A DNA stretch of 64,000 nt from NCBI GenBank assembly GCA_007375645.1, contig VMER01000003.1:81553-145552 (forward strand), read 5' to 3'. The translations under genes were made by a program, and so were the position numbers. This DNA comes from Parcubacteria group bacterium LiPW_15. Lineage in GTDB: Bacteria > Patescibacteriota > Minisyncoccia > UBA6257 > 2-01-FULL-56-20. Below the pieces are notes generated by a model. That model was not told the DNA's origin. It saw nothing but the letters and a program-made list of their open reading frames with translations, and ran no database searches. Numbering within the stretch: the first letter of the stretch is position 1; each line of letters starts with the position of its first letter. Below are positions 7,037 through 54,752 of this stretch, piece by piece.

Positions 7037-7163
7037 CCCTCACCCTTGAAAGACTTTTTTATTCGACGATATAGATTTGAACATGTTGCTCGATATTAGA
7101 TTATGATTATGAAATGATTATAGAAAATAATTCTTATACAAGTCGGTCTTTCAGGGGTGAGGG
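7037..7163. promoter_or_regulatory. 18-bp inverted repeat (CCCTCACCCTTGAAAGAC / GTCTTTCAGGGGTGAGGG, one mismatch) enclosing a 91-nt AT-rich loop; it fills the entire infB-rbfA intergenic space
   Basis: Direct inspection. The arm adjacent to the rbfA ATG contains its SD-like GGTGAGGG. Confidence 0.55.
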
Positions 7164-7164
7164 A

Positions 7165-8615: not shown

Positions 8616-8693
8616 TTTGCTCCCGAAGAATACCAAAAAGCATTGAAAATAACAACTTTTCGTGCAAAAAAAGCGGCCCTGAGGCCGCCTGCT

Positions 8694-9176: not shown

Positions 9177-9300
9177 GTATTGTCCAAACTATTTTTTTAA
9201 ACGCATTCCGAAGTCGCACATTTGGCACCAACTTTTTAGATAAAAAACCGCCGCTCCCTTTTGGGATGACGGCGGTTTTCTTTCGGCGAAAACGGCGGGT

Positions 9301-10191: not shown

Positions 10192-10328
10192 GTTTTTTAT
10201 TATTTTTGGTTTATATGGGGACCCTTTACATAAGTATAGACGAATGGGTTTGAAATCTATTACAAATTCTGTTCGGACGTTTACACGATAAAATATCGAG
10301 ACGCGCGGCCATTTGGTATAATAGAGAC

Positions 10329-11333: not shown

Positions 11334-11353
11334 GTTAAGGTTTATCTGCAAAA

Positions 11354-11442
11354 GGAGGGGTCGGATAATGGTTATTCCAACGGTTTGCTAAACCGTGCTG
11401 CGTAACAGCGGCCTGTGGGTTCGAGTCCCACCCCCTCCGCCA
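11354..11442 (+). tRNA. tRNA-Ser(GCT)
   Basis: GGAGGGG-TC-GGATAATGGTTATTCC-A-ACGGT-TTGCTAA-ACCGT-GCTGCGTAACAGCGGCC-TGTGGGTTCGAGTCCCAC-CCCCTCC-G-CCA. Class II long variable arm; CCA is encoded. Confidence 0.8.
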
Positions 11443-11496
11443 GATTACCAAGTTTGAACTCAAGTAAAATAAGGCTTATTTTGCTAAAATAGAAAT

Positions 11497-12453: not shown

Positions 12454-12670
12454 GATATGTTCAGGCGGGCGCGATTTGATTAGAAAACATCACATTCAGA
12501 TTGAGTAATCTACCGCATTTTGTCCCTTGCATGATTTCGGCTTAGACACCTCAAACCATTCTGGGTGAATTTTGTAGATAGCCCTTAGTTTCTGTATACT
12601 TTTATCAAGATTCTCGAATTTGAGCCGTGTTTTCGGTTCAAACTTCGGGACATCGTCCCCGCCCTAAAAC

Positions 12671-12700
12671 AAAAATAGCCCACCAATGGGCTATTTTTGT
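12671..12700. terminator. bidirectional terminator between convergent genes
   Basis: AAAAATAGCCCA-CCAA-TGGGCTATTTTT. Confidence 0.7.
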
Positions 12701-12730
12701 TCGGGCGCGAGCAGTTCGGCTCCCATCCGC

Positions 12731-13408
12731 CTATGCGGACGGCCGCCTCTCCACGCTCTCATATAAATCTCCGCCACAGTTATCACAAGGTTCCCCTATC
12801 TCAAGCTTGATAACCTCGGCATTTCCAATATCTAACCCCGTAGACTTAGCGTGCTCGATCTTCCTGATATTCTTAAGAACCAAGCCTAGTAATGCGCCGT
12901 GAGATACGAGCACCACGTTTTTATGCTCATGATCCTTCCGATGATTGAGCAATGCTTTCATCGCCCTCTCCTCGACTTCTTCAAATGTTTCGCCCCCAAG
13001 CTCTTTATAGGGCCGGTCAAGAAAGCTACCGTATTTTTCATTTACTTCCGGAATATACATACCCTCCAGACTACCGCAATAAAGTTCCCGTAAAGATCTG
13101 TCGAGAATTATCTCAGCGCCGGTAGCTTTGGCGATTATCTCTGCCGTTTTTCTTGCGCGCACCAAATCAGAGCTCACGATCAAATCAATGTGCTTATCCT
13201 TCAAAAGGTTTGCAGTGGCTTCGGCTTGCTTTATGCCGGTTTCATTTAGGGGCATGTCGGTTTGTCCAAGTATGCGCTCCTCTTTGTTCCAATCGGTTTC
13301 GCCGTGCCGAACCAAAAACCAGTTTGATTTTATTTTCAAATCAGAATACTCCTTGCCACAGCCCATGCAAAAATAATTTGGCATGAACATATTGTACCCT
13401 TTATTCAA
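12731..13408 (-). CDS. histidine phosphatase family protein (phosphoglycerate-mutase-like) with flanking CxxC pairs
   Basis: RHG motif LVRHGETDWN and a downstream catalytic His (LVSHGALL). CMGCG at the N-terminus and CDNCGG at the C-terminus suggest a split zinc ribbon. Confidence 0.65.
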   Translation of the reverse strand: MNKGYNMFMPNYFCMGCGKEYSDLKIKSNWFLVRHGETDWNKEERILGQTDMPLNETGIKQAEATANLLKDKHIDLIVSSDLVRARKTAEIIAKATGAEIILDRSLRELYCGSLEGMYIPEVNEKYGSFLDRPYKELGGETFEEVEERAMKALLNHRKDHEHKNVVLVSHGALLGLVLKNIRKIEHAKSTGLDIGNAEVIKLEIGEPCDNCGGDLYESVERRPSA

Positions 13409-13458
13409 ACTTTAGCGATTCGGTAAAGATACGGCGAGCAGTTCTACCCCACCCCACG

Positions 13459-13492
13459 TTTTGCGAATCCCGTTTTGGGTATATATTTGTAG
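13459..13492 (+). promoter_or_regulatory. promoter-like repeat copy 1: TTGCGA-N15-TATATA within TTTTGCGAA..CCGTTTTGGGTATATATTTGTAG
   Basis: A 23-nt core identical to 15233-15256; sigma70-like -35/-10 spacing; 19 nt upstream of the ATG at 13511. Confidence 0.45.
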
Positions 13493-13510
13493 ATAGAAGC
13501 TTTTAGCCAA

Positions 13511-14680
13511 ATGAATTATCAAAAAAATATTTTCCGGCGATACGCCATTCACGCCTTTTTCCAACGCTTTGCCCAGTTTGTATTTTTTGGATTTGGTAGT
13601 TTACTGATATACACCAAAACGCAATCGGTCGTTTGGACAATACTTTTTGGGCTTCTGGGAACAGTCACGAATATCGGAATATTATTATTCCCGCATTGGT
13701 GGTGGAGATGGTTGGCACAAAAGAATTTACAACAAGCGATGATTGTCGGGATGTTGCTTTTTGCTGTCGCTGATTTCGGAATATATTATTTGCCGACAGA
13801 TATTCATAATTTCAGTGTTTTTCTGATGCTTCTTGCGATTCTGCACTCTTTTGGAAACCAAATTTATTGGGCTCCTTCTAATGCTATATTTTTCAATGCC
13901 CTTGGATCGCTTGATTCTCCCGGAAAATACAGCGGGATTATGTCGATCGTCGAGATGATCAGTGCTACATTGGCCGGTGTAGCTGGATTACTCTTGAGTG
14001 ATCCGGCCCGCTTTCTATATCTATGGCCGCTCGGTGGCACCGTGCTCCTTTTAAGTATTTTGCCATTATTGGGGTTACATATTTCTTTTGAGGATCACCT
14101 TTCAACCATTCAAGGATTCAAAAAACTTTCGCTTTCGGCGATTCTCGCGAATATAAATCCCGATCATCGGTTTCAGATCACCGCTATTCCGCTTCTTTTA
14201 GTCTTTCTCTTTAAATCCTTAAATGTCTCTATTTGGATTACCGGCATCACATTTCTTGCGTCCGTGTTGATATCGTATATTGCGGGAAGATATAAGGACA
14301 GTAGCCGTCCTTTTCCTTATATCATTGCAACTATCAGCTTAGGATTGATGTGGATTTTATACGCTTTTGCGAAAACCCCACTCATTTTTATCCTTCTGGG
14401 CGTTGGAGTTCAACTCGCATCGCTTATGCTTGATGTGGGACGCGAAGCTCGCCTGGGACGAGAGGTGGTAAATTCCGGCAATCCGTTAAACACTGCTTTT
14501 GCGATTGAGTGCTCCAGGGCAATTGGAGGAACAATCAGTTTTTCTGTTTTGCTTGTGGTATATCTTATTTATGGTCCAACTGCGCAATTATTTCTGGCAC
14601 TTGGAGTTATTTTTATATTACCAAGGGCACGGTATGCAATCGGGAATATAGACGGCGCGCTCCACTCGCCGCGGGCATAG
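13511..14680 (+). CDS. multi-pass membrane transporter (MFS-like)
   Basis: 389 aa with about 12 hydrophobic helices in a two-halves architecture. Composition-based call. Confidence 0.45.
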   Translation: MNYQKNIFRRYAIHAFFQRFAQFVFFGFGSLLIYTKTQSVVWTILFGLLGTVTNIGILLFPHWWWRWLAQKNLQQAMIVGMLLFAVADFGIYYLPTDIHNFSVFLMLLAILHSFGNQIYWAPSNAIFFNALGSLDSPGKYSGIMSIVEMISATLAGVAGLLLSDPARFLYLWPLGGTVLLLSILPLLGLHISFEDHLSTIQGFKKLSLSAILANINPDHRFQITAIPLLLVFLFKSLNVSIWITGITFLASVLISYIAGRYKDSSRPFPYIIATISLGLMWILYAFAKTPLIFILLGVGVQLASLMLDVGREARLGREVVNSGNPLNTAFAIECSRAIGGTISFSVLLVVYLIYGPTAQLFLALGVIFILPRARYAIGNIDGALHSPRA

Positions 14681-25923: not shown

Positions 25924-27192
25924 TTACTGCGGCCGTTTTCCAAGCACAACCTTAAACTCCATCTCCTTTCCTCCTCTCGCTATCTTTAAGGTCACCGTGT
26001 CGCCGGGATTATATTCGGAGATGAGCGCGAGCAGAGAATTATTTTCGTCTATCTTTTTTCCGTTCACTTCCAAAATTATATCTTCCGCCAAGATACCGGC
26101 TTTCTCCGCCGGAGAATCTTTGGCAATGGCCGGACCGTCATCGCCTCCGCGGACAAGCGCGCCATGATCCGCAGCCAAATTTTGTTTCTTGGCCAGGTCG
26201 GCGGTGATAGTCATGCTTCGGACTCCGAGGTAAGCGGTCTGGATCTCACCTTTGGTTTTTACCGAACTTATAGCGCGCTTGGCGCGGTTAATCGGAATCG
26301 CAAAACCGATGCTCTGCGCATCGTTGGCCATCGCCGTGTTTATGCCGATAACCTCTCCGCGCAAGTTGAGAAGCGGACCGCCGGAATTGCCCGGGTTAAT
26401 GGCCGCGTCTGTCTGAATCACGCCGGCCAAAGTTTCCGCACCCACAGAGGAACCGGAAGCGGTGATGGTGCGTGAAAGGCCGGAAATAACCCCGACGGAG
26501 ACGGTGTTCCTGAATTCCCCCAAAGCATTGCCGATAGCTATTGCCGTCTGGCCAAGCTCAATGGAATCGGAGTCACCCAGCGTGACGGTCGGAAAACCGT
26601 TTCCGCTGATCTTTAAAACCGCGAGATCTTGAGTCGGGTCTATCGCAACTATGGTCGCTTCGTGCTTTTCACCCTCGCTCGTAAAGACCGTGTAAGAAGC
26701 GGTTTTGTCGGAAGCCACATGCTTATTGGTGATGATAAGCCCTTCGGAAGTGATAATGAAACCGCTCCCGCCACCCACTTCTTGGAGCTGTTTCTTCCCT
26801 TTGTCGCAGGGCACGGAAAACTGCGGCATGTCTCCAAAAAATTGCCGGAACTCGAGCGGAAGATCAGAGAATGGACTTGCGCCCGGACAGGATTCCAACA
26901 CGGGCACATTTTTGGAAATAGTTATGGCCACGACTGCGGGCGAAGCCTTTTTTACCGCGGCGACAACCGCATTTTCATAATCTCCGGCCGGCTTGTAGAG
27001 AGGTACCGGATTCTTATTCCCCTCGGAGTTATTCGTTTCGGCATTCGGCAAAGTTCCGCCTTTAAACGGAGAGGTGATGCTATTCCAAAGATCGCCCCAG
27101 ACGCTAGCCCGGACAACATCGGCTTCCCCGACAATTATTACAACCGCCACAACTACCACTAAAATTCCCAAAATTTTAATTTTTTCTTTCAT
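25924..27192 (-). CDS. htrA: HtrA/DegP-family serine protease with a PDZ domain
   Basis: Trypsin-like catalytic motif GNSGGPLLN, C-terminal PDZ domain, N-terminal TM segment. Confidence 0.85.
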   Translation of the reverse strand: MKEKIKILGILVVVVAVVIIVGEADVVRASVWGDLWNSITSPFKGGTLPNAETNNSEGNKNPVPLYKPAGDYENAVVAAVKKASPAVVAITISKNVPVLESCPGASPFSDLPLEFRQFFGDMPQFSVPCDKGKKQLQEVGGGSGFIITSEGLIITNKHVASDKTASYTVFTSEGEKHEATIVAIDPTQDLAVLKISGNGFPTVTLGDSDSIELGQTAIAIGNALGEFRNTVSVGVISGLSRTITASGSSVGAETLAGVIQTDAAINPGNSGGPLLNLRGEVIGINTAMANDAQSIGFAIPINRAKRAISSVKTKGEIQTAYLGVRSMTITADLAKKQNLAADHGALVRGGDDGPAIAKDSPAEKAGILAEDIILEVNGKKIDENNSLLALISEYNPGDTVTLKIARGGKEMEFKVVLGKRPQ

Positions 27193-28396
27193 ATTTTTTT
27201 ATCTCTTTAATTAATTTTAATATGTCCGGCTTCTTCGTGTCTCTGCCGAAGCTGATCCGCAAACTTCCCCTCGCGCGCTCCTCCGAGTAGCCCAGGGCGA
27301 GAATGACATGCGACGGCTCCGCGCTCCGGCTTCTACAGGCGGAACCCGCGGAAACTGCAAAACCGGCCAAATCCAGGCGGGTTAATAGTTCCTCCGCTCG
27401 GCGGCCCGGAAGATTTATATTGGCAACGTGAGGCAGCGTTTGTTTTTTGTTCGCCGTCCCATTTATAGATACGTTCGGAATCGCCTTTTTGGTTTCGCCG
27501 AGGAAATATGCCTTTAATCCCTCGACTCTTTCGGCTTCTTTGGCCCTCATTCCGGTAGTTATCTTCACCGCCTCCCCGAATCCAACGATGGCCGCAACGT
27601 TTTCCGTGCCCGAACGAAGTCCAAATTCCTGAGCGCCCCCGGAAATGATGGGCTCCAGACCGCTCCTCTCTTTTATATACAGAACGCCTGCGCCCTTAGG
27701 CCCGTATATTTTCTGCGAGGAAAGGGTCATAAGATCGATTCCAAGCCCACTCACATTACAGTCTATATATTGAAAAGCTTGGGCGGCATCGGTGTGAAAC
27801 AAGGGATAGAATGTAGAACCTGAAGTATAGAATTTAGAATTCTTTTTGAATTCGGAGATTATTTCGGCGAATTTAGCGACGGGCTGAATGGTGCCGATTT
27901 CGTTATTGCCGAGCATCACGGAAACCACCGCGGTCCTCTCGTCCAATTTCTCGCGCAAGATCTCTTCACGCACAAATCCGTTTTTATCTACCGGCAAACA
28001 AACGACTTCCGCTCCCTCGCCAAGAAGTGCGCGGGCGGACTCCAAAACAGACTCGTGCTCTATGGCTGAGACAATTATTTTCGGTTTTCCTTTTATTCCG
28101 TTCTTTTTAAAATATTTTTTGGCCCCTAGAAACGCGCCTTTGATCGCCAGGTTGTTCGCCTCTGTCGCGGAACCGGTAAAAATTATCTGGCGAAAATCCG
28201 CACCAAGTTCCCGCGCGATAATATCCCTCGCCTTATCTACTGCGGTTATCGCTTCCTGGCCGAAGGAATGAAGGCTCCCGGCATTGCCGAATTTTTCGGA
28301 AAAATACGGCAACATCGCCCCCAGAACTTTTTTGTCCACCGGAGCGGAGGCCGCGTAATCGAAATAATAACGTTTCATATCTACTTTATATGCCAT
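27176..28396 (-). CDS. cysteine desulfurase (class-V aminotransferase, IscS/NifS-like)
   Basis: PLP-fold motifs, a SSHK-like region, and a C-terminal active-site Cys region (SAGSACRS). 406 aa. Confidence 0.8.
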   Translation of the reverse strand: MAYKVDMKRYYFDYAASAPVDKKVLGAMLPYFSEKFGNAGSLHSFGQEAITAVDKARDIIARELGADFRQIIFTGSATEANNLAIKGAFLGAKKYFKKNGIKGKPKIIVSAIEHESVLESARALLGEGAEVVCLPVDKNGFVREEILREKLDERTAVVSVMLGNNEIGTIQPVAKFAEIISEFKKNSKFYTSGSTFYPLFHTDAAQAFQYIDCNVSGLGIDLMTLSSQKIYGPKGAGVLYIKERSGLEPIISGGAQEFGLRSGTENVAAIVGFGEAVKITTGMRAKEAERVEGLKAYFLGETKKAIPNVSINGTANKKQTLPHVANINLPGRRAEELLTRLDLAGFAVSAGSACRSRSAEPSHVILALGYSEERARGSLRISFGRDTKKPDILKLIKEIKKYERKN

Positions 28397-28502: not shown

Positions 28503-28532
28503 ATTAACTGCTTTGATATATCAAAGCAGTTA
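28503..28532. promoter_or_regulatory. 30-bp perfect palindrome TTAACTGCTTTGATA|TATCAAAGCAGTTAA at the 3' end of the TrpR-like gene
   Basis: Direct inspection; it shares the 22-bp core CTGCTTTGATATATCAAAGCAG with 28956-28995. Confidence 0.6.
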
Positions 28533-28946
28533 ATCAAACATCCAGATCCTGCCATATTTTGTCTTTTTGTAATGCCCGCTCCTCCTTGGCCTATTACCGG
28601 CTCCTGAGACATTTTTCTCCGCGCCGGTAACCTTCCGCTCTTGGTTCCCGAGATAGCTTTCGTAGGTTTTGCCATCCAACACTCTTTTGATACGGCTGAC
28701 TGTTTGGGAGGAAACCCAAAACTTTTTGCCTATATCCCGATAGCTATTCCCGGAAACAACAGACTCCAGCACGGCTACCCGCAACACGAGGTCATGCCGC
28801 TCTTTATCGGTCACAAACAATCGCAGAAGATCGGGGCGAGCAGAAATCATTTTCCAGCAGACAATTTCCCACTCCTTTCGCGAAGAAAAATCTTCCGGAT
28901 TCGGCAAATTGATTTTTCCGGCGCGCTGATTTCTTGTTCCTCCCAT
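28530..28946 (-). CDS. TrpR-like DNA-binding protein (YerC/YecD family)
   Basis: ERHDLVLRVAVLESVVSGNSYRDIGKKFWVSSQTVSRIKRVL matches the TrpR/YerC helix-turn-helix region. Confidence 0.6.
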   Translation of the reverse strand: MGGTRNQRAGKINLPNPEDFSSRKEWEIVCWKMISARPDLLRLFVTDKERHDLVLRVAVLESVVSGNSYRDIGKKFWVSSQTVSRIKRVLDGKTYESYLGNQERKVTGAEKNVSGAGNRPRRSGHYKKTKYGRIWMFD

Positions 28947-28955
28947 GCACTAATC

Positions 28956-28995
28956 ATACCACCACTGCTTTGATATATCAAAGCAGTGGTGGTAT
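28956..28995. promoter_or_regulatory. 40-bp perfect palindrome ATACCACCACTGCTTTGATA|TATCAAAGCAGTGGTGGTAT, 10 bp upstream of the TrpR-like start
   Basis: Direct inspection; the position implies an autoregulatory operator overlapping the promoter and ribosome-binding site. Confidence 0.6.
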
Positions 28996-29115
28996 GCGGA
29001 TTCAAATGTAATGGGCAGAATACAATGTGCGGGGGGGGTACATCGTGCAGAATGCACAGAATACGCGCGGAATGCACGGCAAAAAAACAGCAAAAAACAA
29101 TGATGAGGGCGGGGG

Positions 29116-45060: not shown

Positions 45061-45065
45061 TCTTG

Positions 45066-45150
45066 TGCCCGGGGGGAGATTTGAACTCCCATGATCTTGC
45101 GATCGCTAGCTCCTAAAGCTAGTGCGTATAGCCAGTTTCGCCACCCGGGC
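45066..45150 (-). tRNA. tRNA-Leu(TAG)
   Basis: Reverse complement: GCCCGGG-TG-GCGAAACTGGCTATACGC-A-CTAGC-TTTAGGA-GCTAG-CGATCGCAAGATCATG-GGAGTTCAAATCTCC-CCCGGGC-A. Class II long variable arm. Confidence 0.8.
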
Positions 45151-45297
45151 AATATCCCACCTTGTTGTTCAATTTATAATTTACCACAGAAATGCCCGAA
45201 GGGTGGGAGGGTAAATCTGCCAACTTGCCCCGTCAAAGCGAAGCTTATTCGGGGTTTCGCCACCCCAGCACTTTGAACGGGATAAATTTGCCATTTC

Positions 45298-45317
45298 CCT
45301 GCCTGCCGGCAGGCAGG
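45298..45317. repeat. palindromic repeat copy B: CCTGCCTGCC|GGCAGGCAGG, followed 35 nt later by GGCGAAGCG
   Basis: Direct inspection; in the same orientation as copy A. Confidence 0.6.
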
Positions 45318-45533
45318 GCCACCTGCTCGCCTCGCTATGGCTTCGGCGAAGCGGGCTCACTTTGACCATTCTATCCCAAAAAAAGCGATAACAAAATCTG
45401 CCGACACGGAAAATTGACTTCTGCCGTAAATTCGATATATTACAGACAGCAACCTGCGCGAAAGGAGGCGCGCGTCAAAACCGACCCAAGCCCCGCCGAA
45501 CAACGCTCAAAAACCCGAATGGGAGAAACGACC

Positions 45534-45761
45534 ATGGGATTCTTCTCGAAAAGCGAGTCCGAACGGTCCGCCGAACTCACAGGATACCGCTCCGACGGGA
45601 TCAAGGATGGGGTTTCCGGCAGGACCGACCCCCCCCACACGATCGGCGTTCTCGACCACCTGCTTCTCCGGGACAACTTCATCGAAGAGCTCCAGAAAGA
45701 CAACCAGGCCTACGCTGACGGCAACGCCATCGGCACAGCCGTAAGGAGCTCCCGGGAATAA
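45534..45761 (+). CDS. small hypothetical protein (75 aa), first gene of the GC-rich island
   Basis: GGGAG SD 8 nt upstream of the ATG at 45534 (MGFFSKSESERS..). The ORF track extends to 45414. Confidence 0.35.
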   Translation: MGFFSKSESERSAELTGYRSDGIKDGVSGRTDPPHTIGVLDHLLLRDNFIEELQKDNQAYADGNAIGTAVRSSRE

Positions 45762-45959
45762 CCCAAAATAGTTAGATATTTACTTGCGCATTTGCCCTTT
45801 GAGGCCCCCAAATCGGGGGTTTTGTTTTACTTGACTTTTTAAACATTTGGTGATATAATTTGGGCACTTGAGCGTAAAGCTCGAGCTCGCCATTTAACAA
45901 CGCGGCGGGGACGAAATCCCGCGCCGCTTCACGAGAACGAAAGAGAGAAGGAGTTTGTC

Positions 45960-47105
45960 ATGAAGAAAGACGACAAGGACAAGAAGGGCGAAGAAAAGAA
46001 GGAGGCGAAGAAGACCGGCGGATGGATCGGAAAGATCATCCGAAGCCTGATCCTCTTCCTCATCTGCACCCTACCGCTCTTGGGCGCAATCGCCTGGTGG
46101 GCGGGAATCGCGGCGGCCGTTGACGCGGCTGTCATCATCCTGGACCTCTTCATCCTGTTCCTGATCGGCAGGTTCGCGTATCGGGCCACCAAGGAGACCT
46201 TCTTCGGCGTCCCGCCGAACCAGGCCGCCATCATCGCGCGCCAGTGGTTTTCCGACGCAACTCCGGTACGAACCGGACGCGTCGTGACCCAACGGGACTT
46301 CCTGCCAGTGATCAAGATGGCAGCAAAGATCCCTTGGGCCGATCAAGCCCAGTTCGTGGAGCTCAAGGAGAAAACTCTGGACTTCACGGCCAAGGTCATC
46401 GCCATGGACGGGATGTCTATCAACATCTCGGGGACCTTGGCCTATGTTCCGGACTTCTGTATCCTGGACGCCGGCGGCGTTCCCGTCTTCGGGACCACCA
46501 CCGAAGCGGATATCGTCACGAAGGCGAGAGCGATTGCCAAGAACAAGATCGGAGCGGTCGGCAATGTGACCGACTCGGACACCATTCTCCAGAGTCTCCC
46601 AACCATCGACCAGATGCTCAAAGGAGTTATGCAGACTTCGCAGCTCCCCCACCTTCACATTCCGGGCGGGGACACTGTCCCCGCCAAAGACCTGGTCAGC
46701 TTCTACGCTGCGAACTGGAAGGCCATCGACGAGCAGATCAAGCTGCACAACGCCGCGGCGGCCGAACACTCCGACCTGGAACTCACCAACGGCATCGACA
46801 TCCGTTGGGTGAAGACCGAGTCGCCAGCCCTCTCGGCCGAAAGCCAGAAGGCCAAGGACGAGAAGGCCCGGGTGGCCGCCATCCAGAAGGGGCATGCCAA
46901 TGCCACGGCCATGGTCAAGCAGTTCATGACGGATGTTCCCAAGGCGAGTTCGGCGGCTGCGATCAATTTCGTTGCGCAGGAACTCTATCGGGACAACACG
47001 ACCCGAGTGATCAACTCGGTGGAAACATCCGAGGGAGCTGGCGCCGAAGGGCTCCTCGCTCTCGCGGCCGCGAATCTCGGCAAAGCTGCCGGAAAGGGGA
47101 AGTAA
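45960..47105 (+). CDS. SPFH / band-7 (stomatin-flotillin-like) domain membrane protein
   Basis: AAGGAG SD. N-terminal Lys/Glu-rich tail and two TM helices, then a ..PVRTGRVVTQRDFLPVI..DQAQFVELKEKTLDFTAKVIAMDGMSINISGTLAYV..GIDIRWVKTESPAL..AQELYRD pattern that fits an SPFH core followed by a coiled-coil; Ala-rich C-terminus. Confidence 0.5.
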   Translation: MKKDDKDKKGEEKKEAKKTGGWIGKIIRSLILFLICTLPLLGAIAWWAGIAAAVDAAVIILDLFILFLIGRFAYRATKETFFGVPPNQAAIIARQWFSDATPVRTGRVVTQRDFLPVIKMAAKIPWADQAQFVELKEKTLDFTAKVIAMDGMSINISGTLAYVPDFCILDAGGVPVFGTTTEADIVTKARAIAKNKIGAVGNVTDSDTILQSLPTIDQMLKGVMQTSQLPHLHIPGGDTVPAKDLVSFYAANWKAIDEQIKLHNAAAAEHSDLELTNGIDIRWVKTESPALSAESQKAKDEKARVAAIQKGHANATAMVKQFMTDVPKASSAAAINFVAQELYRDNTTRVINSVETSEGAGAEGLLALAAANLGKAAGKGK

Positions 47106-47106
47106 G

Positions 47107-47649
47107 GTGAGAGGAAACGCTTCCGCCAACACCCCAAGGGGCAGGAAAGGTGGGAGTGTCATCTACCTCATCGCCTTCCTCTTGCTTGCCGCAGCGATCG
47201 CCTTCGCGGCAGTGAAAGTCTTTTCCGTCATCAACTCGATGGCCAGGTCGGCCGTCACCACGGTCGACGACCGCCTGGGAGTCGAGAAGGCCCTGGCGAA
47301 CATTCCGGGGTCCCACTCCGCGACCAAGGTCAAGCGCCCGGCGCCCTGCTCGGGGATGAATAAGGTCGATCTCGGCTGGTACGACAAGGCGTACCACGAG
47401 AGCGCGGCCGTGTCCCTGCCGCGCGGATGCGCGGTGATGGTCGAGGTTCACCCCGACCCGGCCGCGAGGATCTCTTTCCGGTTCGACAACGGACCGAAGA
47501 ACGATCTCGGCGTCGCGACCAAGAGCAAGTCGTGGCTCATCAAAGCGGGGGACGTTCCCCCATCCATCGACACAGCGAAAGACTACGTGTTTTGGTTCTG
47601 GGACCCCAAAGGCCAGAGCCACCTCGTTCTCCGCGCTGACCGTCTCTAG
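47107..47649 (+). CDS. hypothetical membrane-anchored protein (possible partner of the SPFH protein; NfeD/YqiJ-like by position only)
   Basis: GTG start 1 nt after the upstream stop; a single N-terminal TM segment. Strong terminator at 47682-47708. Confidence 0.4.
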   Translation: MRGNASANTPRGRKGGSVIYLIAFLLLAAAIAFAAVKVFSVINSMARSAVTTVDDRLGVEKALANIPGSHSATKVKRPAPCSGMNKVDLGWYDKAYHESAAVSLPRGCAVMVEVHPDPAARISFRFDNGPKNDLGVATKSKSWLIKAGDVPPSIDTAKDYVFWFWDPKGQSHLVLRADRL

Positions 47650-47681
47650 TTCGTTCAGCTCTTCGCCCCGTATCGGGGCAG

Positions 47682-47708
47682 CCCGGCCTCACGGCCGGGC
47701 TTTTTTAA
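47682..47708 (+). terminator. rho-independent terminator ending the GC-rich island
   Basis: CCCGGCC-TCAC-GGCCGGG followed by TTTTTT. Confidence 0.75.
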
Positions 47709-47775
47709 TACAATAAAAACAAAACCCGCCCGAGCATTTAGCTTGGACGGGTTTTTAAATTCTTGTTAACGGATC

Positions 47776-48192
47776 TTAGTAGCCAACAATGCTCCTTACG
47801 AAGCCGGGCAAGATCGTAGCCAAGAGAGCGACGGCCATAGCCACTACCGCGTAAAGCAACATGTGGCTAGCCTTGCTCACCTTTTCCGGATCACCTCCGG
47901 CAGTAAGATACACGAAGGCGGCATAGATGACCATTATGATGGCAAGCACCCAAAAAGCCCATTTGATGAGCCCGAGCACAGTGCCCTCGATGAAACTCGT
48001 GACGCCCGTGAGGCTTCCGAATGTTCCGCTACCCTGGCCGATCGGCTCGGTTACTATCGCACCGGCAAACAACGGGGCGAGAAGCAATCCGGCGCTGACC
48101 GCGAGTATGAGTGAACCTTTGATTGATTTCTTCATAGTGTAATTCGAGAAGACTCGACCTTTCAATGATTCCAGTTTAGCACAAATATCCAA
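47776..48192 (-). CDS. VirB2/TrbC-like (T4SS pilin-like) small membrane protein
   Basis: Signal peptide, then two hydrophobic helices joined by the turn YLTAGGDPEKVSKAS. Confidence 0.5.
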   Translation of the reverse strand: MDICAKLESLKGRVFSNYTMKKSIKGSLILAVSAGLLLAPLFAGAIVTEPIGQGSGTFGSLTGVTSFIEGTVLGLIKWAFWVLAIIMVIYAAFVYLTAGGDPEKVSKASHMLLYAVVAMAVALLATILPGFVRSIVGY

Positions 48193-48208
48193 GTAAATAA
48201 ATCAAAAC

Positions 48209-48595
48209 CTACTGATTTATGATGTCCGTGATGAGAGACACAACGGATCGGGAGATAAGCACCACCGCAAAACCTATCGCGGAATAGAGAACTGTCTTTC
48301 CTCCGGTCTTTACTTTTTCTGGATCACCCCCGGCGGTCAATATTTGAAATCCTCCCCAAAGAACCATTATGGAAGTAAGGGGAATCGCTATATAGAAAAT
48401 CAGATCCATTATTTTTACGAGTATGCAATCCAGCTGTCCGCAAGTGCCGAAGGGACTGAGATCTTTGAGATCGATAACCTGTTCCCCGCTCGGCGGGAGA
48501 GTCATATCGCCGCTAGCGGCCATCACATATCCTCCGACAGCCAGAAGCGACAAGGTTATACCGACAAAAACAATCGTGCTTATTTTTTTACCCAT
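48209..48595 (-). CDS. VirB2/TrbC-like (T4SS pilin-like) small membrane protein
   Basis: ILTAGGDPEKVKTGGK turn between two helices. The likely start is the ATG at 48595 (MGKKISTIVFVGITLSLLAVGG..); the ORF track extends to 48700 across a large hairpin. Confidence 0.5.
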   Translation of the reverse strand: MGKKISTIVFVGITLSLLAVGGYVMAASGDMTLPPSGEQVIDLKDLSPFGTCGQLDCILVKIMDLIFYIAIPLTSIMVLWGGFQILTAGGDPEKVKTGGKTVLYSAIGFAVVLISRSVVSLITDIINQ

Positions 48596-48608
48596 TTGTT
48601 TAAGTTTA

Positions 48609-48673
48609 CCCCCACACCTAACGAAGAACAAGAAGCCGTTTGCGGATAAATTTTTCGTTAGGTGTGGGGGTTT
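48609..48673. promoter_or_regulatory. 18-bp perfect-stem hairpin (ACCCCCACACCTAACGAA / TTCGTTAGGTGTGGGGGT) with a 29-nt loop, immediately upstream of the pilin-like start at 48595
   Basis: Direct inspection; the arm next to the ATG contains the G-rich SD-like sequence. Confidence 0.5.
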
Positions 48674-48704
48674 ACCCCAACTGCGTCCCGCTAAGAACAA
48701 GATT

Positions 48705-49211
48705 CTATTGTGCGCGGAAAACGCTTTGGCAAAAGCTTAACGGCACGTACTCCCTGTCACCGTCGGACGCCAAAGACGATATAGATATCTTAAGCTTGCA
48801 GAGTTCCTGCTTGCCGGCCCCCAAAATTGCGAAAAGAGAGTTTTCTGCCGCACTCCTTCCAGCCGAAGAGGCCGAAAGATCCATTGCGATCTCAAAGCCG
48901 CTATCCGCTCGATAATAAAGAATGTCGTATCCCGCGGCCCGAGAAACAAGCACTGCTCCGCTCTCCGGTATCGCCGCCTTAGCAGTTTTATAAAAGTTGT
49001 TCACCCAAACTCCCCCGCCGGGACCCTGAAGCAAAATCCTTTCGGAACTCGGCGCGAGAGGAAACGCTTCCGCGATAGACGCTTGCCCCATTGGGCCGCC
49101 TTGCCTATCCGCCGGGCGAAAAACCAAAAGAGCCACGACGAATAAACTCCCGGCAGCGACAACAGCCAATAATTTTAAAAAGATTAGTTTCATTTGAAAA
49201 AAATTCCACAA
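48705..49211 (-). CDS. hypothetical secreted protein, paralog A (…VWVNNFYKTAKAA…)
   Basis: N-terminal signal/TM segment. Shares the NFYKTA motif block and overall architecture with 49190..49738. Confidence 0.45.
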   Translation of the reverse strand: MWNFFQMKLIFLKLLAVVAAGSLFVVALLVFRPADRQGGPMGQASIAEAFPLAPSSERILLQGPGGGVWVNNFYKTAKAAIPESGAVLVSRAAGYDILYYRADSGFEIAMDLSASSAGRSAAENSLFAILGAGKQELCKLKISISSLASDGDREYVPLSFCQSVFRAQ

Positions 49212-49738
49212 AAACTAAGCTTGGCTGGATCGGCTTTCGGCATCGACACGCTAACGGTAAGCCGACAAGCGTCCGCGCGGGAGATCCCCAAGCGGTCAAT
49301 AAGGTCTTTTTCCGCCTCAAGCCTTGTCTTCTGATCTTCAACTCTAACCACAATATCGAAACTCCCGTCGTAAATGGAATAATCCAGCTCGTATTTTTCG
49401 GAAAAAAAGATCACTACTTGGTTTTCCTCGACAACGGCAACCGCGGTTTTATAAAAATTTTTCACCTTAATACCGCCGGTTGGAGTTGAGATCGTGAATG
49501 TATCTCCGGCGGGCGAACCCGCGGGCAAAGAAACCTGCCCGCCCGCGCCTCCCAAGAAATCCATATTCTGCTCTTTGTCTCCGCCCAAAACCGGAACCTC
49601 CGACTCGGTAACCGCCGGAGATTCGGGACGGTTTTTGAACCAAATGATGCCGGCGTAAACCAGACCCACAGCCACCAGCACGGAAAGAACGATTAAGATC
49701 TTCTTCATTTTATTAGTTCCTGTCGCAACCCGCCGCAC
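49190..49738 (-). CDS. hypothetical secreted protein, paralog B (…IKVKNFYKTAVAV…)
   Basis: N-terminal signal/TM segment; paralogous to 48705..49211; overlaps its neighbours by a few codons. Confidence 0.45.
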   Translation of the reverse strand: MRRVATGTNKMKKILIVLSVLVAVGLVYAGIIWFKNRPESPAVTESEVPVLGGDKEQNMDFLGGAGGQVSLPAGSPAGDTFTISTPTGGIKVKNFYKTAVAVVEENQVVIFFSEKYELDYSIYDGSFDIVVRVEDQKTRLEAEKDLIDRLGISRADACRLTVSVSMPKADPAKLSFCGIFFK

Positions 49739-50540
49739 TTACGTGAACGTGTGTAGCGTCGGCGCAGCCAACTTTTTGACCGGCCGCGTTTTCACAACGC
49801 GCGCCGCCGGATTTTGCACCGCACTGATTAGCCGCAGAAACGATAGCTTCGAAATATTTTGCCTTATCGCTGCCGCTCTTCCCGGCTCCGCCATAGTCCA
49901 CCGCCAAAGCGCCGTCGCTGCCGGATGAACCGCCGTAATGGCAGGAGTTTTTCGTGTGGCTGCACCTACCGCTCGGCTCGCATCCCGGAGTTCCTCTCGT
50001 ATAGTTGCACGATGAATGATCTATATCGTACGTGAATTTGCTGCCGGGTATGGAGCCGACTTTCCCCTGGATACAGCCCATTACATTCTGCAGCTCCGAA
50101 GAATTTCTTGCCGGATAAGCAGTATTGTTTTTCTGCGCCAAAGTTTGAGGATCACATTTTGCTCCGCAAGTTATTGTCGGCTCGCAGGTTGCCCTGGGAT
50201 CTAGGCTTGAACATACGCCATCGCAATCCTCAGTTTTAAAACAACTGTCTCCCACCGCCGCTCCGTCCACCTTACAGGCATATTGCGGCACCTCTCCCGC
50301 CGTCGTACTCGTGGGCGAGACGATTTGGCTCAACTTCGGTATCTGAAGGATGGTAAGCTCTGGATTAATGGTGTTTAGAATGACAAAGGCACCTCCCAGA
50401 AGTACCAGTCCCCAAAGAGCCTGGGTTATCTGGTCTTTGGCATCGCTTATGACTCCAGGATTACCCTGAGAAGCAGTCCACTTTATACCTGCATAGAGGA
50501 GGCTCAGAAAAATGAGCGTTAAAAAAACTTTTTTCTTCAT
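49713..50540 (-). CDS. secreted protein with a pilin-like N-terminal helix/turn and a Cys-rich (more than 20 Cys) C-terminal domain
   Basis: ATG at 50540 (MKKKVFLTLIFLSLLYAG..), 2 nt after the upstream stop. ..WTASQGNPGVISDAKDQI.. turn and second helix, then a CxxC/CDG-rich domain of about 200 aa. Confidence 0.45.
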   Translation of the reverse strand: MKKKVFLTLIFLSLLYAGIKWTASQGNPGVISDAKDQITQALWGLVLLGGAFVILNTINPELTILQIPKLSQIVSPTSTTAGEVPQYACKVDGAAVGDSCFKTEDCDGVCSSLDPRATCEPTITCGAKCDPQTLAQKNNTAYPARNSSELQNVMGCIQGKVGSIPGSKFTYDIDHSSCNYTRGTPGCEPSGRCSHTKNSCHYGGSSGSDGALAVDYGGAGKSGSDKAKYFEAIVSAANQCGAKSGGARCENAAGQKVGCADATHVHVSAAGCDRN

Positions 50541-50541
50541 T

Positions 50542-50997
50542 TTATTTACAACGTATCTCCGACCAGCTGGACTGCTGCATATTCGCAACCGTCGGGAACG
50601 TCCAACCGATAAGAGAAAAGAAAGTATTAACAATAATAAACGCACCGACCGTGATGGCGATTCCTATAACCGTCGAAAGAAGCATCTTCCTGGCGTCGCT
50701 CACTTCAGTCGCGTTTCCCCTGGCAAGCATTATCCGCACACCGCCCCAGATGAGAAAAAGTGGCGCGATGATATAGATGGCAATGGTCATCGCCATTTTT
50801 ACGATGTTCTGCCCGGTTACCAACAGATCGCAAAAACTCGTGCATTGGGGCAAAGCCGAACCCGGCTGCGGCGAACCGCTGCAAGAAACTATCGGCCCCC
50901 AATACGGAGAAAAAGCTCCGGCGGAAGCAAGTGCAGGCACAAGCAAGGAGGCGAAAATCAAAGCAAGAGCCGGTATCGCGAAATATATTTTCCTCAT
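50542..50997 (-). CDS. VirB2/TrbC-like (T4SS pilin-like) small membrane protein
   Basis: Signal peptide, a short Cys-containing segment, then two helices joined by IMLARGNATEVSDARKM. Confidence 0.5.
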   Translation of the reverse strand: MRKIYFAIPALALIFASLLVPALASAGAFSPYWGPIVSCSGSPQPGSALPQCTSFCDLLVTGQNIVKMAMTIAIYIIAPLFLIWGGVRIMLARGNATEVSDARKMLLSTVIGIAITVGAFIIVNTFFSLIGWTFPTVANMQQSSWSEIRCK

Positions 50998-51035
50998 TGG
51001 TATTTGTTAAATTTTTACTCCCTGATGGCTAGTTT

Positions 51036-52322
51036 CTATCTGAGCGCAGTCACGCCGTCCTCCGCTTCCTTGAGCGCCTGAGCGGAATCTTTTTGTCCAG
51101 AGACAACAGCCGAGATGGCACTCGTAAATATTTCTTTTATCTTATCATAATCTGGCGTATACCAAGACCGGGCGATAAGCGATTGTTTAACAAAAACTCC
51201 AAGGTCGGGGTCGTTCAGGTTGCTCGCGATTATCGAACGGAGCGCCGGAGGACGGCCGGTAACGCCAAGATAAGAATACGAACCGGAATCTTGCGCGGCT
51301 ACAAAATTTATAAAATCCCAAGCGCCTGCGGAATATTGGCTCTGCTTGGACACCGCGAGCCCCCAGTAATTCGGATATGCGGCGGTCGTGCTTGCGGATA
51401 TCTGCGGAACCGGAGCGATAGAAAATCTGAGATACGGGCTGACTCTTTTTATATCCGCGACATCGTTCGAATAGGCGAAAGCCATTGCGGCCTTCCCCCC
51501 GGCAAAAGCGTTCAGGGAATCCTGCTGTGCTTCATTCCAGGTGTAATTTGAATCTCCGGGGTTAGAAAAAGAAAGATAAAAATTGAAGGCTTGGGAACCC
51601 GAAGAATTCTTGCCGCCCGCGAACGAAGCCCCCGACAGATCCTGGTTCCACATCTTGGTCCCGTTTTGGATCATTATCATGTTTAAAATATCGGTCGCGT
51701 AATCTACGCTCTTTTCGGAACCGCCGATAGCCGCGCCGGCGATTTGGATCTGGGTTTTTTCGTTCAACACCCTAAGCTTGTTCGAATCATCCGCAAATTC
51801 CTGCCAGGTAGACGGCGGAGAGACAATCAGCGTCCGGTCAAACATGTCCAGATTGTAGACTAGCGCCAAAGTATCTATATATAGTGGAAGCGCATAGACC
51901 GTTCCGTTTATGGAAAAATCTTCGGCCACAACGGAGGGATATAGTTGATTCAAATTATTAACGTTCATGACTTCTTGGCCTACGGGAACGATCAGATTAG
52001 CAAGTTTGGCCAAAGAGCGATTGGATACATAAAAAATGTCCGGTCCCCGTTGCGCCGCCAAGGCTTTTATAAGTTCGCTTTCGTAATTCGCCGGATCGAT
52101 CTTAACGTAGCTGATGGAGGAAGCGTTGTTGTGAAGCTTGTTATAGGCCTCGATAGCGCCGCCAAAACTATTTGCTCCGTCCACGCCCCAGATCGTAAGT
52201 TTCGGCGCGGCGGTTCCGCCGACCGGTCCTTTGGAACCTAAGGTCAGTATTAAAATCACGCCGATAACCACCAAGGCTATCACGCCGATAACTATCATTT
52301 TCCCTTTTGACATCGGTTGCAT
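51036..52322 (-). CDS. extracellular solute-binding protein, ABC-transporter family 1 (sugar-binding-like); no permease or ATPase nearby
   Basis: N-terminal TM/signal segment; 428 aa with a two-lobe SBP_bac_1-like layout. Its start abuts the gyrA stop. Confidence 0.65.
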   Translation of the reverse strand: MQPMSKGKMIVIGVIALVVIGVILILTLGSKGPVGGTAAPKLTIWGVDGANSFGGAIEAYNKLHNNASSISYVKIDPANYESELIKALAAQRGPDIFYVSNRSLAKLANLIVPVGQEVMNVNNLNQLYPSVVAEDFSINGTVYALPLYIDTLALVYNLDMFDRTLIVSPPSTWQEFADDSNKLRVLNEKTQIQIAGAAIGGSEKSVDYATDILNMIMIQNGTKMWNQDLSGASFAGGKNSSGSQAFNFYLSFSNPGDSNYTWNEAQQDSLNAFAGGKAAMAFAYSNDVADIKRVSPYLRFSIAPVPQISASTTAAYPNYWGLAVSKQSQYSAGAWDFINFVAAQDSGSYSYLGVTGRPPALRSIIASNLNDPDLGVFVKQSLIARSWYTPDYDKIKEIFTSAISAVVSGQKDSAQALKEAEDGVTALR

Positions 52323-54752
52323 TTAGAGGATCGCTATAGCGGCAAGCTTGTCGCCGGACTTCAGATCCATCACTCTCACTCCCTGCGCGGACCGTCCGGT
52401 CTTTCTCACCCCGCTAAGCTCGGTTCTGATGACCTGGCCTTTTTGAGAGAGAGCGAAAAGGTCTTCTTCTTCGTAGACTATGCGGCTGGCGATAAGCTTT
52501 CCGGTCTTCGCAGTGATATTCGCGGTTTTTATTCCGCTGCCTCCGCGATTCTGAACTTTGTATTCGGATAACGTCGTTTGCTTTCCGAAACCGTTTGCCA
52601 TTAACACCAGCACATTCGTCTTCTTCGCATCTACTCCTTTATTGATTATATCAAAGCCGGCGACAGAATCGTCTTTCTTGAGCTTAATGGCGCGCACACC
52701 GGCCGCGGTCCTGCCCATCGGCCTGGCCTGTGATTCCTTAAAGCGGATGGACTGTCCGCCTTCGGTGGCCATGAGTATCTCATCCGATCCGCTTGTTAAT
52801 CTGGCCCACTTTAGGAAGTCGCCCTTCTTAAGCGAAATGGCGATAATTCCGGTGCGGCGGATGTTCGCGAAATCCTGAAGCGGAGTTTTCTTTATAAGTC
52901 CGTCCTTGGTAGCCAACACCAGGAATTTGGCATCTTCTTTTTTGGCGGAATAAGTAACGATAGCCGCGATCTTCTCCTCCGAAGGCATCTCTAGGAAATT
53001 GTGGACCGCCCTGCCTTTTGAGGTTCGGCTCGCCGCGGGGATCTCGTGAACTTTGGTTTGGAAAACCCGGCCGTGATCGGTAAAGAAAAGAACTTGGTCG
53101 TGGGTGTGGGCGCTCACAAACTGCGTCAGGAAGTCTTCTTCCTGAACGTCGGAACCGATAAGCCCTTTGCCTCCGCGCCGCTGGCTCGAGAAGGTGTCCG
53201 GTGGAAGCCTCTTAATATATCCTCCCGCGGAGAGGGTTATCATCGCTTCTTCCTGCGGGATAAGATCTTCGTCGGTCATGGTGGTCAGCCCCACGGGAAC
53301 CACCTCGGTGCGGCGCTTATCGCCAAACTTTTCCTTAAGATCTTTAATCTCCTGCTTGATTATCGCAAGCATTTTAGTCGTGCTTTTCAAAATTAGCTCA
53401 AGCTCTTTAATGAGTGCGAGCTTCTCTTTGAGCTCATCTTCTATTTTTTGTCTTTCGAGAGCAGCCAAAGTCTGTAAGCGCATTTCCAAAATCGCGTTCG
53501 CCTGAATCTCGGTGAGCTTAAAGCCCTTTATTAAATTCGCCCTGGCGTCATCGCGATCCTTGGACTTCTTGATGGTCTGAATAACTTTATCAATGGAACC
53601 GAGCGCCTTGTGCAAGCCTTCCAATATGTGGGCCCGCTCCTTGGCTTTTTTGAGATCGAATTCCGTTCTTCGGCGAACCACTATCTTTCTGTAGGCAAGA
53701 TATTCGACGAGAATATCGCGAAGCGACAAAGTTCGCGGAACCAATCCGTTTTCCACCAGCGCCACCATGTTCAAATGAAAATCTTTTTGGAGATTGGTGT
53801 GTTTATAAAGTTGGTTCAGAACTTTTTGCGGGGCGGCATCATTCTTGAGTTCGATAACCACGCGCAAGCCCTCGCGGTCGGATTCGTCGCGCAGGTCCCT
53901 GATACCTTCGATCTTTTTATCCACTACAAGTTCGGCTATCTGCTTCACCATCTCCGACTTGTTGACCATGTAGGGGATCTCGGTAATCACAATATCATAT
54001 TGATCTTTCTTTCTTTCCTCTATGGTCGCCTTGGCGCGGGTAACGACCGCACCGCGGCCGGTGCGATAAGCTTCTTTAATGGCTTTTTCGTCAAAAATTA
54101 CTCCGCCGGTCGGGAAATCCGGTCCTTTCACGAATTTCAAAAGATCGTCTACCGTGGCATCGTCATTGTCCGCCAAATAAAGTATCGCGTCCGCGATCTC
54201 GCCCAAGTTGTGCGGAGGAATACTGGTGGCCATACCGACCGCGATACCGAGAGTCCCATTTAAAAGCAAATTCGGAAGTTTGGCGGGTAAAACGCTGGGC
54301 TCAACCTTCGTCGCATCATAGTTCGGCACCCAATCCACGGTTTCTTTTTCAATATCCGTAAGCATCTCCCCGGAAATTTTTGCGAGCTTGGCCTCGGTAT
54401 AGCGGTGAGCGGCAGCTGCGTCGCCATCGATGGAACCGAAGTTTCCTTGGCCGAATACCAGCGGATAGCGCAAAGAAAAATCCTGGGCCAGGCGCACCAT
54501 GGTGTCGTATATCGCGGAATCTCCGTGCGGATGGTATTTGGCCATCACGTCTCCGACTACGGTCGCGCTCTTTCTGAACCTGGAGCTGTAATCCAGCCCG
54601 CTTTCCCACATAGACCAAAGAATGCGGCGCTGCACAGGCTTCAAGCCGTCGCGGACATCCGGCAAGGCGCGCGAAATTATCACGGACATCGCGTAGTCCA
54701 GATATGAATCCTGAAGCTCTTTGGTTATTTCTCTTTTTTGTATCTCGGACAT
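52323..54752 (-). CDS. gyrA: DNA gyrase subunit A
   Basis: N-terminal ..[14 protein letters not shown].. with active-site Tyr context, then C-terminal beta-pinwheel repeats; 809 aa. Confidence 0.9.

Follow-up and report, generated by a model that had tools for sequence, protein, structure and literature searches.

Introduction

A search of 3,035 Patescibacteria genomes with the Pfam families PF18895 and PF04956 detected VirB2-like pilins of type IV secretion systems (T4SSs) in 1,948 VirB4-positive assemblies, in 1,135 of which they are encoded near virB4, and revealed 441 VirB2-like arrays arranged in tandem or with an intervening non-pilin gene (Quinonero-Coronel et al., 2025; PMC12102498). 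Most genomes with VirB2 homologs are without VirB1, for which other glycosidases might substitute (PMC12102498). In Southlakia epibionticum, a predicted pilin series is likewise part of a T4SS cluster that is essential (Wang et al., 2023; PMC10633639; also PMC12857230); the T4SS is essential in the sole Patescibacterium tested genetically (PMC11665869, PMC10633639), and a monoderm T4SS possibly building a VirB2 pilus is considered unusual (PMC12857230). Here, we analyze a 64-kb stretch of DNA from Parcubacteria group bacterium LiPW_15 (contig VMER01000003.1, positions 81,553 to 145,552; hereafter, the window), in which six co-directional minus-strand genes, designated A to F and including VirB2-like pilin genes, lie 3' of gyrA and a gene for a solute-binding protein (SBP) of the SBP_bac_1 family.

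The organism (assembly GCA_007375645.1, Paceibacteria) is VirB4-positive in Table S1 of the published survey (PMC12102498). Pilin arrays with the motor encoded elsewhere have already been published as a kind, and this locus is another member. Our conclusion is that the locus is probably the pilin cassette of a Patescibacteria-type (monoderm, MPF-FATA-like) T4SS of LiPW_15, situated apart from the VirB4/VirB6/PrgI core; the same degree of confidence covers the proposed filament and the roles suggested below for the tail of protein E and for proteins C and D.

VirB2-like pilins of the array

The array and its flanks comprise the following features:

52323..54752, minus strand: gyrA, the conserved upstream neighbor, with DNA_topoisoIV and DNA_gyraseA_C matches in the identical locus L001
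51036..52322, minus strand: membrane-anchored solute-binding protein SBP_bac_1, 428 aa, with PF01547 (100.3 bits) and PF13416 (98.5 bits) matches and an N-terminal hydrophobic anchor
50542..50997, minus strand: pilin F, the position-1 pilin, 151 aa, PF18895 24.6 bits, with four conserved cysteines
49713..50540, minus strand: protein E (LiPW15_749), the position-2 pilin-headed protein, 275 aa, with a truncated VirB2-like head
49190..49708, minus strand: protein D (LiPW15_748) of the C/D family, 172 aa, with an N-terminal transmembrane (TM) anchor, a disordered linker, and an alpha/beta domain of ~105 aa
48705..49193, minus strand: protein C, the second C/D paralog, 162 aa, its start overlapping the D stop (ATGA)
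48608..48671, no strand: intercistronic hairpin with an 18-bp perfect stem in the 109-nt C-B spacer
48209..48595, minus strand: pilin B, small canonical VirB2-like, 128 aa, the best profile match (PF18895 41.8 bits, E = 1.1e-10)
47776..48135, minus strand: pilin A, small VirB2-like, 119 aa, the last gene of the array, PF18895 27.5 bits
47680..47760, no strand: terminator-like GC-rich hairpins with T-runs, between the array and two convergent plus-strand genes

Two of the pilins, B (41.8 bits) and A (27.5 bits), exceed the gathering cutoff of PF18895 (T4SS_pilin; 26.6 bits), the profile match to a T4SS-pilin family of the candidate phyla radiation (CPR) that was anticipated in an earlier note on this stretch, made without database searches. 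The gathering cutoff of PF04956 (TrbC/VirB2; 27.9 bits) is not reached by the window pilins, the best score being that of F (10.4 bits, E = 0.78). The small pilins from related cassettes, described below, all match PF18895 (39/39, E<=0.01), and 12 of the 39 also match PF04956 (best E = 5.9e-8). As PF04956 is missed by the window pilins and reached by their relatives, the kinship with VirB2/TrbC lies at the superfamily level. A sequence search of PDB with the 39-pilin profile returned designed helical proteins only.

Topology was assigned by a Kyte-Doolittle hydropathy scan. Each of A, B, and F has three hydrophobic segments, namely a signal-like N-terminus and two helices; the short polar turn that separates the helices reads LTAGGDPEKV in A and B and LARGNATEV in F. 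The layout of signal peptide, helix 1, turn, and helix 2, initially ascribed to four ORFs (open reading frames), therefore stands for these three proteins and fails for E, in which a single hydrophobic segment precedes the turn. At the level of predicted topology, A, B, and F are VirB2-like proteins consisting of a signal peptide and a helical hairpin. The array paralogs are divergent (25-33% identical), F and E as well as B and A are adjacent, and the two C/D genes separate these groups, which is the arrangement of the Patescibacteria VirB2 arrays. Position-1 pilins form a subclass of their own: F cysteines C39, C52, C56, and C150 are kept in 11 of them, three preceding helix 1 in the mature N-terminal segment and one standing at the C-terminal end. 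Disulfide bonds between these residues could tie both ends of the protein together.

The closest described systems are the VirB2 arrays of Patescibacteria, with which the locus shares PF18895 membership and divergent tandem paralogs split by non-pilin genes (PMC12102498, PMC10633639). The published average identity within arrays is 25%, compared with 25-33% here, in the same setting of a monoderm CPR bacterium recorded as VirB4-positive and with no relaxase-type context; the published dataset includes LiPW_15 (PMC12102498). VirB2 of Agrobacterium and TrbC of RP4 (PF04956) are likewise small and have two hydrophobic helices and a short loop after the signal peptide, whereas the window pilins miss the PF04956 cutoff, their host is monoderm, and nothing indicates head-to-tail cyclization; instead, the position-1 pilins keep cysteines near both ends, a possible disulfide tie. 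Tandem virB2 genes of Bartonella and Anaplasma also occur as divergent copies side by side, which have been read as surface variation or host-range adaptation (PMC12102498). Those bacteria, however, are diderm animal pathogens with complete VirB/D4 loci, without pilin-headed enzyme fusions or a C/D-family gene.

The NCBIfam family NF045849 (Mbov_0395 family pilin-like conjugal transfer protein, from integrative and conjugative elements of Mycoplasma) was matched by A (E = 1.7e-5) and more weakly by F and B, all below its cutoff. These matches hint that a VirB2-like protein may also be present in some MPF-FATA systems of other monoderms.

The location of the array on one strand, 3' of gyrA (52323-54752) and of an orphan binding-protein gene (51036-52322), was confirmed. 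Some ORFs of the earlier note started too far upstream, at TTG or GTG; the likely ATG starts are 48135 for A, 49193 for C, and 49708 for D. Spacers of 0-20 nt hold for gyrA and the SBP gene, the stop of the former adjoining the start of the latter (0 nt), but not for C-B (109 nt), B-A (73 nt), and SBP-F (38 nt). The terminator-like hairpins at 47680-47760 are the end of the transcription unit.

Conserved cassette in related genomes

A C/D profile built from a 4-sequence alignment recovered 8 loci in species-representative genomes and another 11 in metagenomes, and home-built hidden Markov models for the pilins, the C/D family, and the E tail were run over all ORFs of these loci. This comparison of synteny, suggested at the outset, revealed the same gene order on both sides of the C/D gene in 13 loci (L003, L006-L013, L018, and L020-L022): a four-cysteine pilin of 146-177 aa, a pilin-headed protein of 280-355 aa, one C/D gene, and 2-5 small pilins (106-188 aa). 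The first pilin is not intact near the contig end in L006, L009, and L020, and the L003 contig ends within the first small pilin. Two C/D genes were found only in L011 and in the window. The retrieved loci L014 and L023 lack the cassette. This fixed order of four-cysteine pilin, pilin-headed hydrolase, C/D protein, and small pilins is not described in the studies of Patescibacteria arrays (PMC12102498 or PMC10633639).

The neighborhood is equally constant. The cassette is preceded by gyrA and then the SBP gene in all seven loci that reach far enough upstream (L003, L007, L010, L013, L018, L021, and L022). L008 also has the SBP gene, and SBP orthologs, 40-45% identical, occupy the same position in 8 related loci. 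The genomes belong to one clade, with gyrA 71-84%, the SBP 40-45%, and the pilins 32-53% identical to those of the window, except for L011 (80%).

Relation to the T4SS core

The contig L025 of a close relative (319 kb, ENA ERZ13692958 NODE_60) carries at 1-12000 a T4SS core beside rnpA/yidC/dnaA/dnaN, a position that agrees with the published origin-proximal location of T4SSs. Its genes encode, in order, an 860-aa unknown protein, TrbL_3 (709 aa), PrgI, a split VirB4 (223 aa TraC-like/VirB4_N, then 572 aa AAA_10/P-loop_TraG), unknown proteins of 305 and 226 aa, P0009, and a 403-aa unknown protein. P0009 has a head nearly identical to that of E and a small Cys-rich tail; lying inside the L025 core, it physically ties the E-type head to the T4SS machine. 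A second LiPW_15 gene with such a head, LiPW15_605 (see below), may occupy the equivalent place beside the core of LiPW_15. The S. epibionticum array, by comparison, is inside the T4SS cluster SEML1_0006-0019, whereas the array considered here occupies the gyrA-SBP locus, separated from any core gene by tens of kb at least.

These data support the proposal of the earlier note that the genes are the structural half of a T4SS-like system with its motor elsewhere: PF18895 is matched, the pilins have the two-helix topology, the genome is listed as VirB4-positive, and L025 supplies the link. As grounds for abandoning that proposal it had named missing profile matches, a discordant topology, and a genome without cognate ATPase or channel genes; instead, profile matches exist, the topology holds for A, B, and F, and VirB4 is recorded for the genome.

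Several observations weigh against the assignment. Pilin F (24.6 bits) falls just under the PF18895 cutoff, and the E head scores 14.6 bits. No T4SS ATPase or channel family was recognized among the large ORFs of the 64-kb window (ClpB, FtsK, PNPase, IF-2, HtrA, RecA, PMT, and others), which bears out the earlier remark that VirB4, VirD4, and VirB6 are not encoded nearby, none of these ORFs matching such a family. The related loci likewise have no T4SS core gene at less than 10 kb from the cassette; the large neighbors scanned there were FtsH, H+-PPase, and PNPase, as well as two large ORFs without a Pfam match. Since the gyrA-SBP synteny is drawn from one clade, it may reflect ancestry and not function. 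By positive-inside reasoning, the E head as assembled would leave the Cys-rich tail in the cytoplasm and the protein non-functional. To our knowledge, no pilus has been seen in any Paceibacterium.

Part of this evidence would equally suit a stand-alone envelope module distinct from a T4SS pilus, in which the hairpins anchor wall-remodelling enzymes that act, together with the SBP, in wall turnover or nutrient capture independently of VirB4. In the loci examined, the cassette lies beside gyrA and the SBP gene, and T4SS core genes are never its neighbors; neither the 64-kb window nor the scanned surroundings of the SBP orthologs in related loci were found to contain an ABC permease or ATPase partner for the SBP; and the name T4SS_pilin is based on similarity, not experiment. 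Such a module is nonetheless unlikely, given that 12/39 cassette pilins match the canonical TrbC/VirB2 family with E values down to 5.9e-8 and that a near-identical head occurs inside the VirB4/TrbL/PrgI cluster of the close relative L025. Moreover, the Saccharibacteria pilin series belongs to an essential T4SS cluster (PMC10633639), and pilins lie near virB4 in 1135/1948 assemblies (PMC12102498).

Truncated head of protein E

Protein E consists of a truncated VirB2-like head (residues 1-60), a linker, a 7-Cys module (88-129), and a 147-aa tail (129-275); its cysteines number 16, not more than 20 as first counted. The protein as assembled has two hydrophobic segments, only one of them before the turn, and helix 1 is missing. 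Two further, independent assemblies of the same strain, L001 (ENA ERZ27284382) and L002 (Logan SRR8863432), are 100% identical to the window upstream of the E junction. They carry 54 extra codons between MKKKVFLTLIFLSLL and YAG, which account for the cleavage region of the signal peptide, for the mature N-terminus, and for helix 1 (...GPVGFIANFYYFALGLGGLLAFGSIV). Relative to them, E of the window has an in-frame 162-nt deletion and runs straight into YAGIKW; the deletion junction is CTGAGCCTCCTC/TATGCAGG, with the departure point at 50497. Both other assemblies stop within ~170 nt of this point (in L002, the site around position 8019) and thus inside gene E or at its margin, L002 at 65 nt past the junction and L001 exactly at YAG.

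The same metagenome-assembled genome contains P0005 (LiPW15_605), partial at a contig edge, which starts with YAGIKW and is 100% identical to E over 66 residues before another Cys-rich tail. As P0005 shares its head with E, the pilin head is a repeat common to at least two loci, and the head repeat shared with LiPW15_605 is the cause of the assembly breaks at pilin-headed genes. The 162-nt deletion is either a real in-frame or population variant or an assembly error, and E, correspondingly, either a variant or a defective gene. Collapse of k-mers in a de Bruijn graph is an unlikely origin of the junction, where the microhomology is only ~1 nt. Exact-sequence look-ups of E and P0005 found no record.

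Exchangeable tails of the position-2 proteins

Homologs of E have a conserved full head (...YAGIKWTxSQGNPGxISDAKDQIxQALWGLVLLGGAFVILNTINPELT...; PF18895 30-38 bits), behind which at least six unrelated tail types were distinguished among 37 proteins. Tails with the SLT_3 'lysozyme like domain' (cutoff 27) belong to the cassettes of L006 (27.6 bits), L007 (27.9 bits), and L010 (31.3 bits), and weak matches were obtained to SLT_3 in L012 and L009 and to VanY in L013. Outside the cassettes, the P0020 tail matches VanY weakly, and the P0032 tail contains a hedgehog-type zinc site (SLHYHGRAADF vs. SLHYEGRAVDI of Shh, E = 0.055). No PDB sequence match was found for the P0004-type tail. The closest relative, L011 (F 80% and B 73% identical to the window), keeps the head and has a different tail type. 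These comparisons show the position-2 tail to be swappable among relatives, several of which have a predicted peptidoglycan-hydrolase domain in this place.

The E-tail family (10 sequences) has invariant residues H195, H201, D215, E250, H264, and H266 as well as nine cysteines. These six residues are collinear with Shh H135, H141, D148, E177, H181, and H183; in order and local motif they resemble the zinc and catalytic residues of hedgehog and DD-peptidases, and their order, H-H-D-E-HxH, contains the LAS ligand order (H...D...H-x-H plus the catalytic E/H). In an hhalign comparison, E-tail SHTKNSCHYGG pairs with Shh HSEESLHYEG, at E = 0.16 only. The AlphaFold2 model of E has a pLDDT (predicted local distance difference test) of 61; Foldseek gave no match for the tail, and no significant sequence, profile, or fold score to any hydrolase family was obtained. 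The E tail is most likely read as a candidate LAS-type zinc peptidoglycan peptidase. It differs from the LAS zinc peptidases (hedgehog N-domain, Streptomyces DD-peptidase, VanX/VanY, phage L-Ala-D-Glu endolysins; MEROPS M15 and relatives) in 7- to 10-residue insertions between motif elements and in the nine cysteines within the domain.

Gram-positive T4SSs have hydrolases with VirB1 function, such as PrgK of pCF10 and TraG of pIP501, which the pilin-headed proteins resemble as putative membrane-anchored peptidoglycan hydrolases dedicated to a T4SS; both groups include lysozyme- or lytic transglycosylase-like and peptidase domains (here, SLT_3 and VanY/LAS-like). PrgK and TraG have a plain TM anchor, whereas here the anchor is a VirB2-like pilin hairpin, the gene lies within a pilin array, and the predicted catalytic tail is exchanged among close relatives. 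Pilin-headed hydrolases, of which no description was found in the literature searched, would be an obvious candidate for a VirB1 substitute in arrays.

The 7-Cys module (50156-50279, E 88-129) precedes differing catalytic tails in different proteins, its pattern in P0006 and P0021 being YxCxxxxxGDxCxxxxxCxGxCxSGxxCxxDxxC. The module is a putative linker or adhesion unit, shuffled separately.

C/D protein family

C and D are 31% identical over 132 aa (E = 2e-14) and have a common NFYKTA block, in accordance with their initial description as paralogs. C is 59% identical to the second C/D copy of L011. A word-index homolog search with D yielded two relatives only, and a full profile search against 1.84 billion representatives yielded 1877 clusters (at 50% identity) with E<=1e-3, 852 of them with E<=1e-10; nearly all of the best 150 matches are 155-190 aa long. 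Members consist of a TM anchor, a variable linker, and a domain of ~105 aa with G-x-V-x-V-[KN]-N-F-Y, two invariant cysteines, and a C-terminal LSFC. No Pfam family was recognized across 48 members, and no PDB sequence match was found. The AlphaFold2 model (pLDDT 86, ~95 within the domain) has no match among solved structures, and C and D resemble neither VirB8/PrgL (NTF2-like) nor VirB5 (helical) in fold or profile.

The conserved cysteine pairs in the C/D proteins and in F point to a probable extracytoplasmic location. Because the C/D gene stands in a constant place, after the gene for the long protein and before those for the small pilins, its product may play an extracytoplasmic accessory or assembly role. 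Separately, L014 (3-3257) encodes P0041, a protein of 1084 aa with two C/D-family domains and no Pfam-recognized domain; the domain is consequently not confined to small anchored proteins.

The variable tails and the gene following them also evoke a polymorphic effector-immunity system, in which the pilin head delivers swappable toxic tails to the host wall and the downstream C/D protein serves as immunity protein or chaperone. One head bears at least six unrelated tails, which differ even between the window and L011 with their 80% identical F pilins; a second gene in the same genome combines a 100% identical head segment with a different tail; a conserved small gene directly follows the variable tail; and assemblies break at the repeated head. 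Cognate immunity proteins, however, would be expected to differ, whereas a single C/D family accompanies all tails, and similarity to D barely follows tail type (42% for the same tail vs. 34-42% for other tails), which argues against such a role of C/D. The 1877 C/D clusters of uniform size also fit a structural accessory protein better, and we regard an effector-immunity system as improbable. A competence system, the alternative raised in the earlier note, or a type IV pilus finds no support, since A, B, E, and F have no class III leader (G then F/M-x-x-x-E, with one long hydrophobic helix) and the pilins instead combine Sec-type N-termini with a helical hairpin.

Intercistronic hairpin

The perfect 18-bp hairpin noticed earlier before a pilin start was confirmed at 48608-48671, its stem reaching 21 bp if one mismatch is allowed; a 131-nt stretch around it folds with -48.7 kcal/mol (z = -5.2). 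Its 3' arm is separated from the pilin B start codon by 12 nt, and no T-run follows. At this site L011 likewise carries a hairpin, whose 9-bp stem base (CCCCCACAC/GTGTGGGGG) is identical and whose upper stem has another, still complementary, sequence. The hairpin is precisely absent from L019, a relative 92-96% identical to the window, and no Rfam match was found. A REP-like (repetitive extragenic palindromic) or MITE-like (miniature inverted-repeat transposable element) repeat was rejected, the hairpin being unique in the window, absent from L019, and without an Rfam family.

The hairpin may modulate expression of the B-A pilins, and it is dispensable among close relatives. More specifically, it might be a regulatory element that sets pilin dosage, either as a 5' stabilizer of the B-A transcript or as a partial terminator or processing site, by which the small pilins would be raised relative to the upstream genes. 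The strong fold, the short distance to the start codon, and the preserved stem base with a compensated upper stem in L011 speak for such a function. We consider it possible yet doubtful in view of the precise absence from L019, the missing T-run and Rfam match, the 14-26-nt spacers at the equivalent position in other cassettes, and the anecdotal nature of a covariation seen in only two sequences.

Other features of the window

The region 45200-47700, bordered by tRNA-Leu (45065-45150, minus strand) on one side and by the array end on the other, has a GC content of 0.55-0.635, compared with ~0.49 for the window, and contains two plus-strand membrane-protein ORFs, 45960-47105 (381 aa) and 47107-47649 (180 aa), neither of which matches a Pfam or NCBIfam family. 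L019 aligns with the window only down to 47325, and the region may therefore be a variable or acquired island.

Two perfect palindromes with the common core CTGCTTTGATA-TATCAAAGCAG, at 28503-28534 and 28955-28996, flank a minus-strand ORF of 138 aa (28530-28946). This ORF is located upstream of a gene resembling class-V aminotransferases/cysteine desulfurases (27176-28396), and the palindromes have the appearance of a pair of operators for a putative regulator. Finally, the low-GC region 10000-14000 (0.43) contains tRNA-Ser (11354-11442) immediately behind a LAGLIDADG-like ORF (10329-11333), as well as a transglutaminase-like ORF (11497-12453).

Discussion

The preferred interpretation, a pilin cassette serving a T4SS encoded elsewhere in LiPW_15, implies the following mechanism. 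The small pilins would be inserted by Sec, processed, and kept as membrane-embedded helical hairpins whose two ends face outward, from where the T4SS would extract and polymerize them into a surface filament for host-cell contact. We infer on this basis that the genes build an actual filament, in which the divergent paralogs would be major and minor subunits or surface variants. The position-2 protein would be seated by the same hairpin at the machine or within the filament and expose its enzyme or adhesin tail to the exterior; in LiPW_15 this tail is probably a Zn-dependent LAS-type peptidoglycan peptidase with a VirB1-like role in opening the cell's own wall or that of the host. The disulfide-bonded, membrane-anchored C/D proteins would be assembly or accessory factors.

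Four features lead beyond the literature searched, as far as sequence comparison can suggest: the fixed cassette order, the polymorphic pilin-headed proteins with putative hydrolase tails, the C/D family, and the constant gyrA-SBP neighborhood. On the practical side, the repeated head breaks or distorts metagenome assemblies precisely at gene E.

More generally, and only tentatively, we propose that Paceibacteria-type T4SS pili are encoded by a fixed cassette that combines polymorphic VirB2-headed tail proteins with a C/D accessory protein for pilus assembly. The swappable tails (SLT_3 lysozyme-like, LAS/VanY-like peptidase, or small disulfide-rich domains) would be shown on or at the pilus and would be the missing VirB1-type enzymes or tip enzymes attacking the host wall. 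If this is true, the pilin head would double as a recombination handle by which close relatives exchange tails to match their hosts. The locus adds no new kind of system; it provides concrete candidates, namely the pilin-headed hydrolases for wall breaching without VirB1, the C/D family for the non-pilin members of arrays, and tail swapping behind a conserved head for a source of surface diversity.

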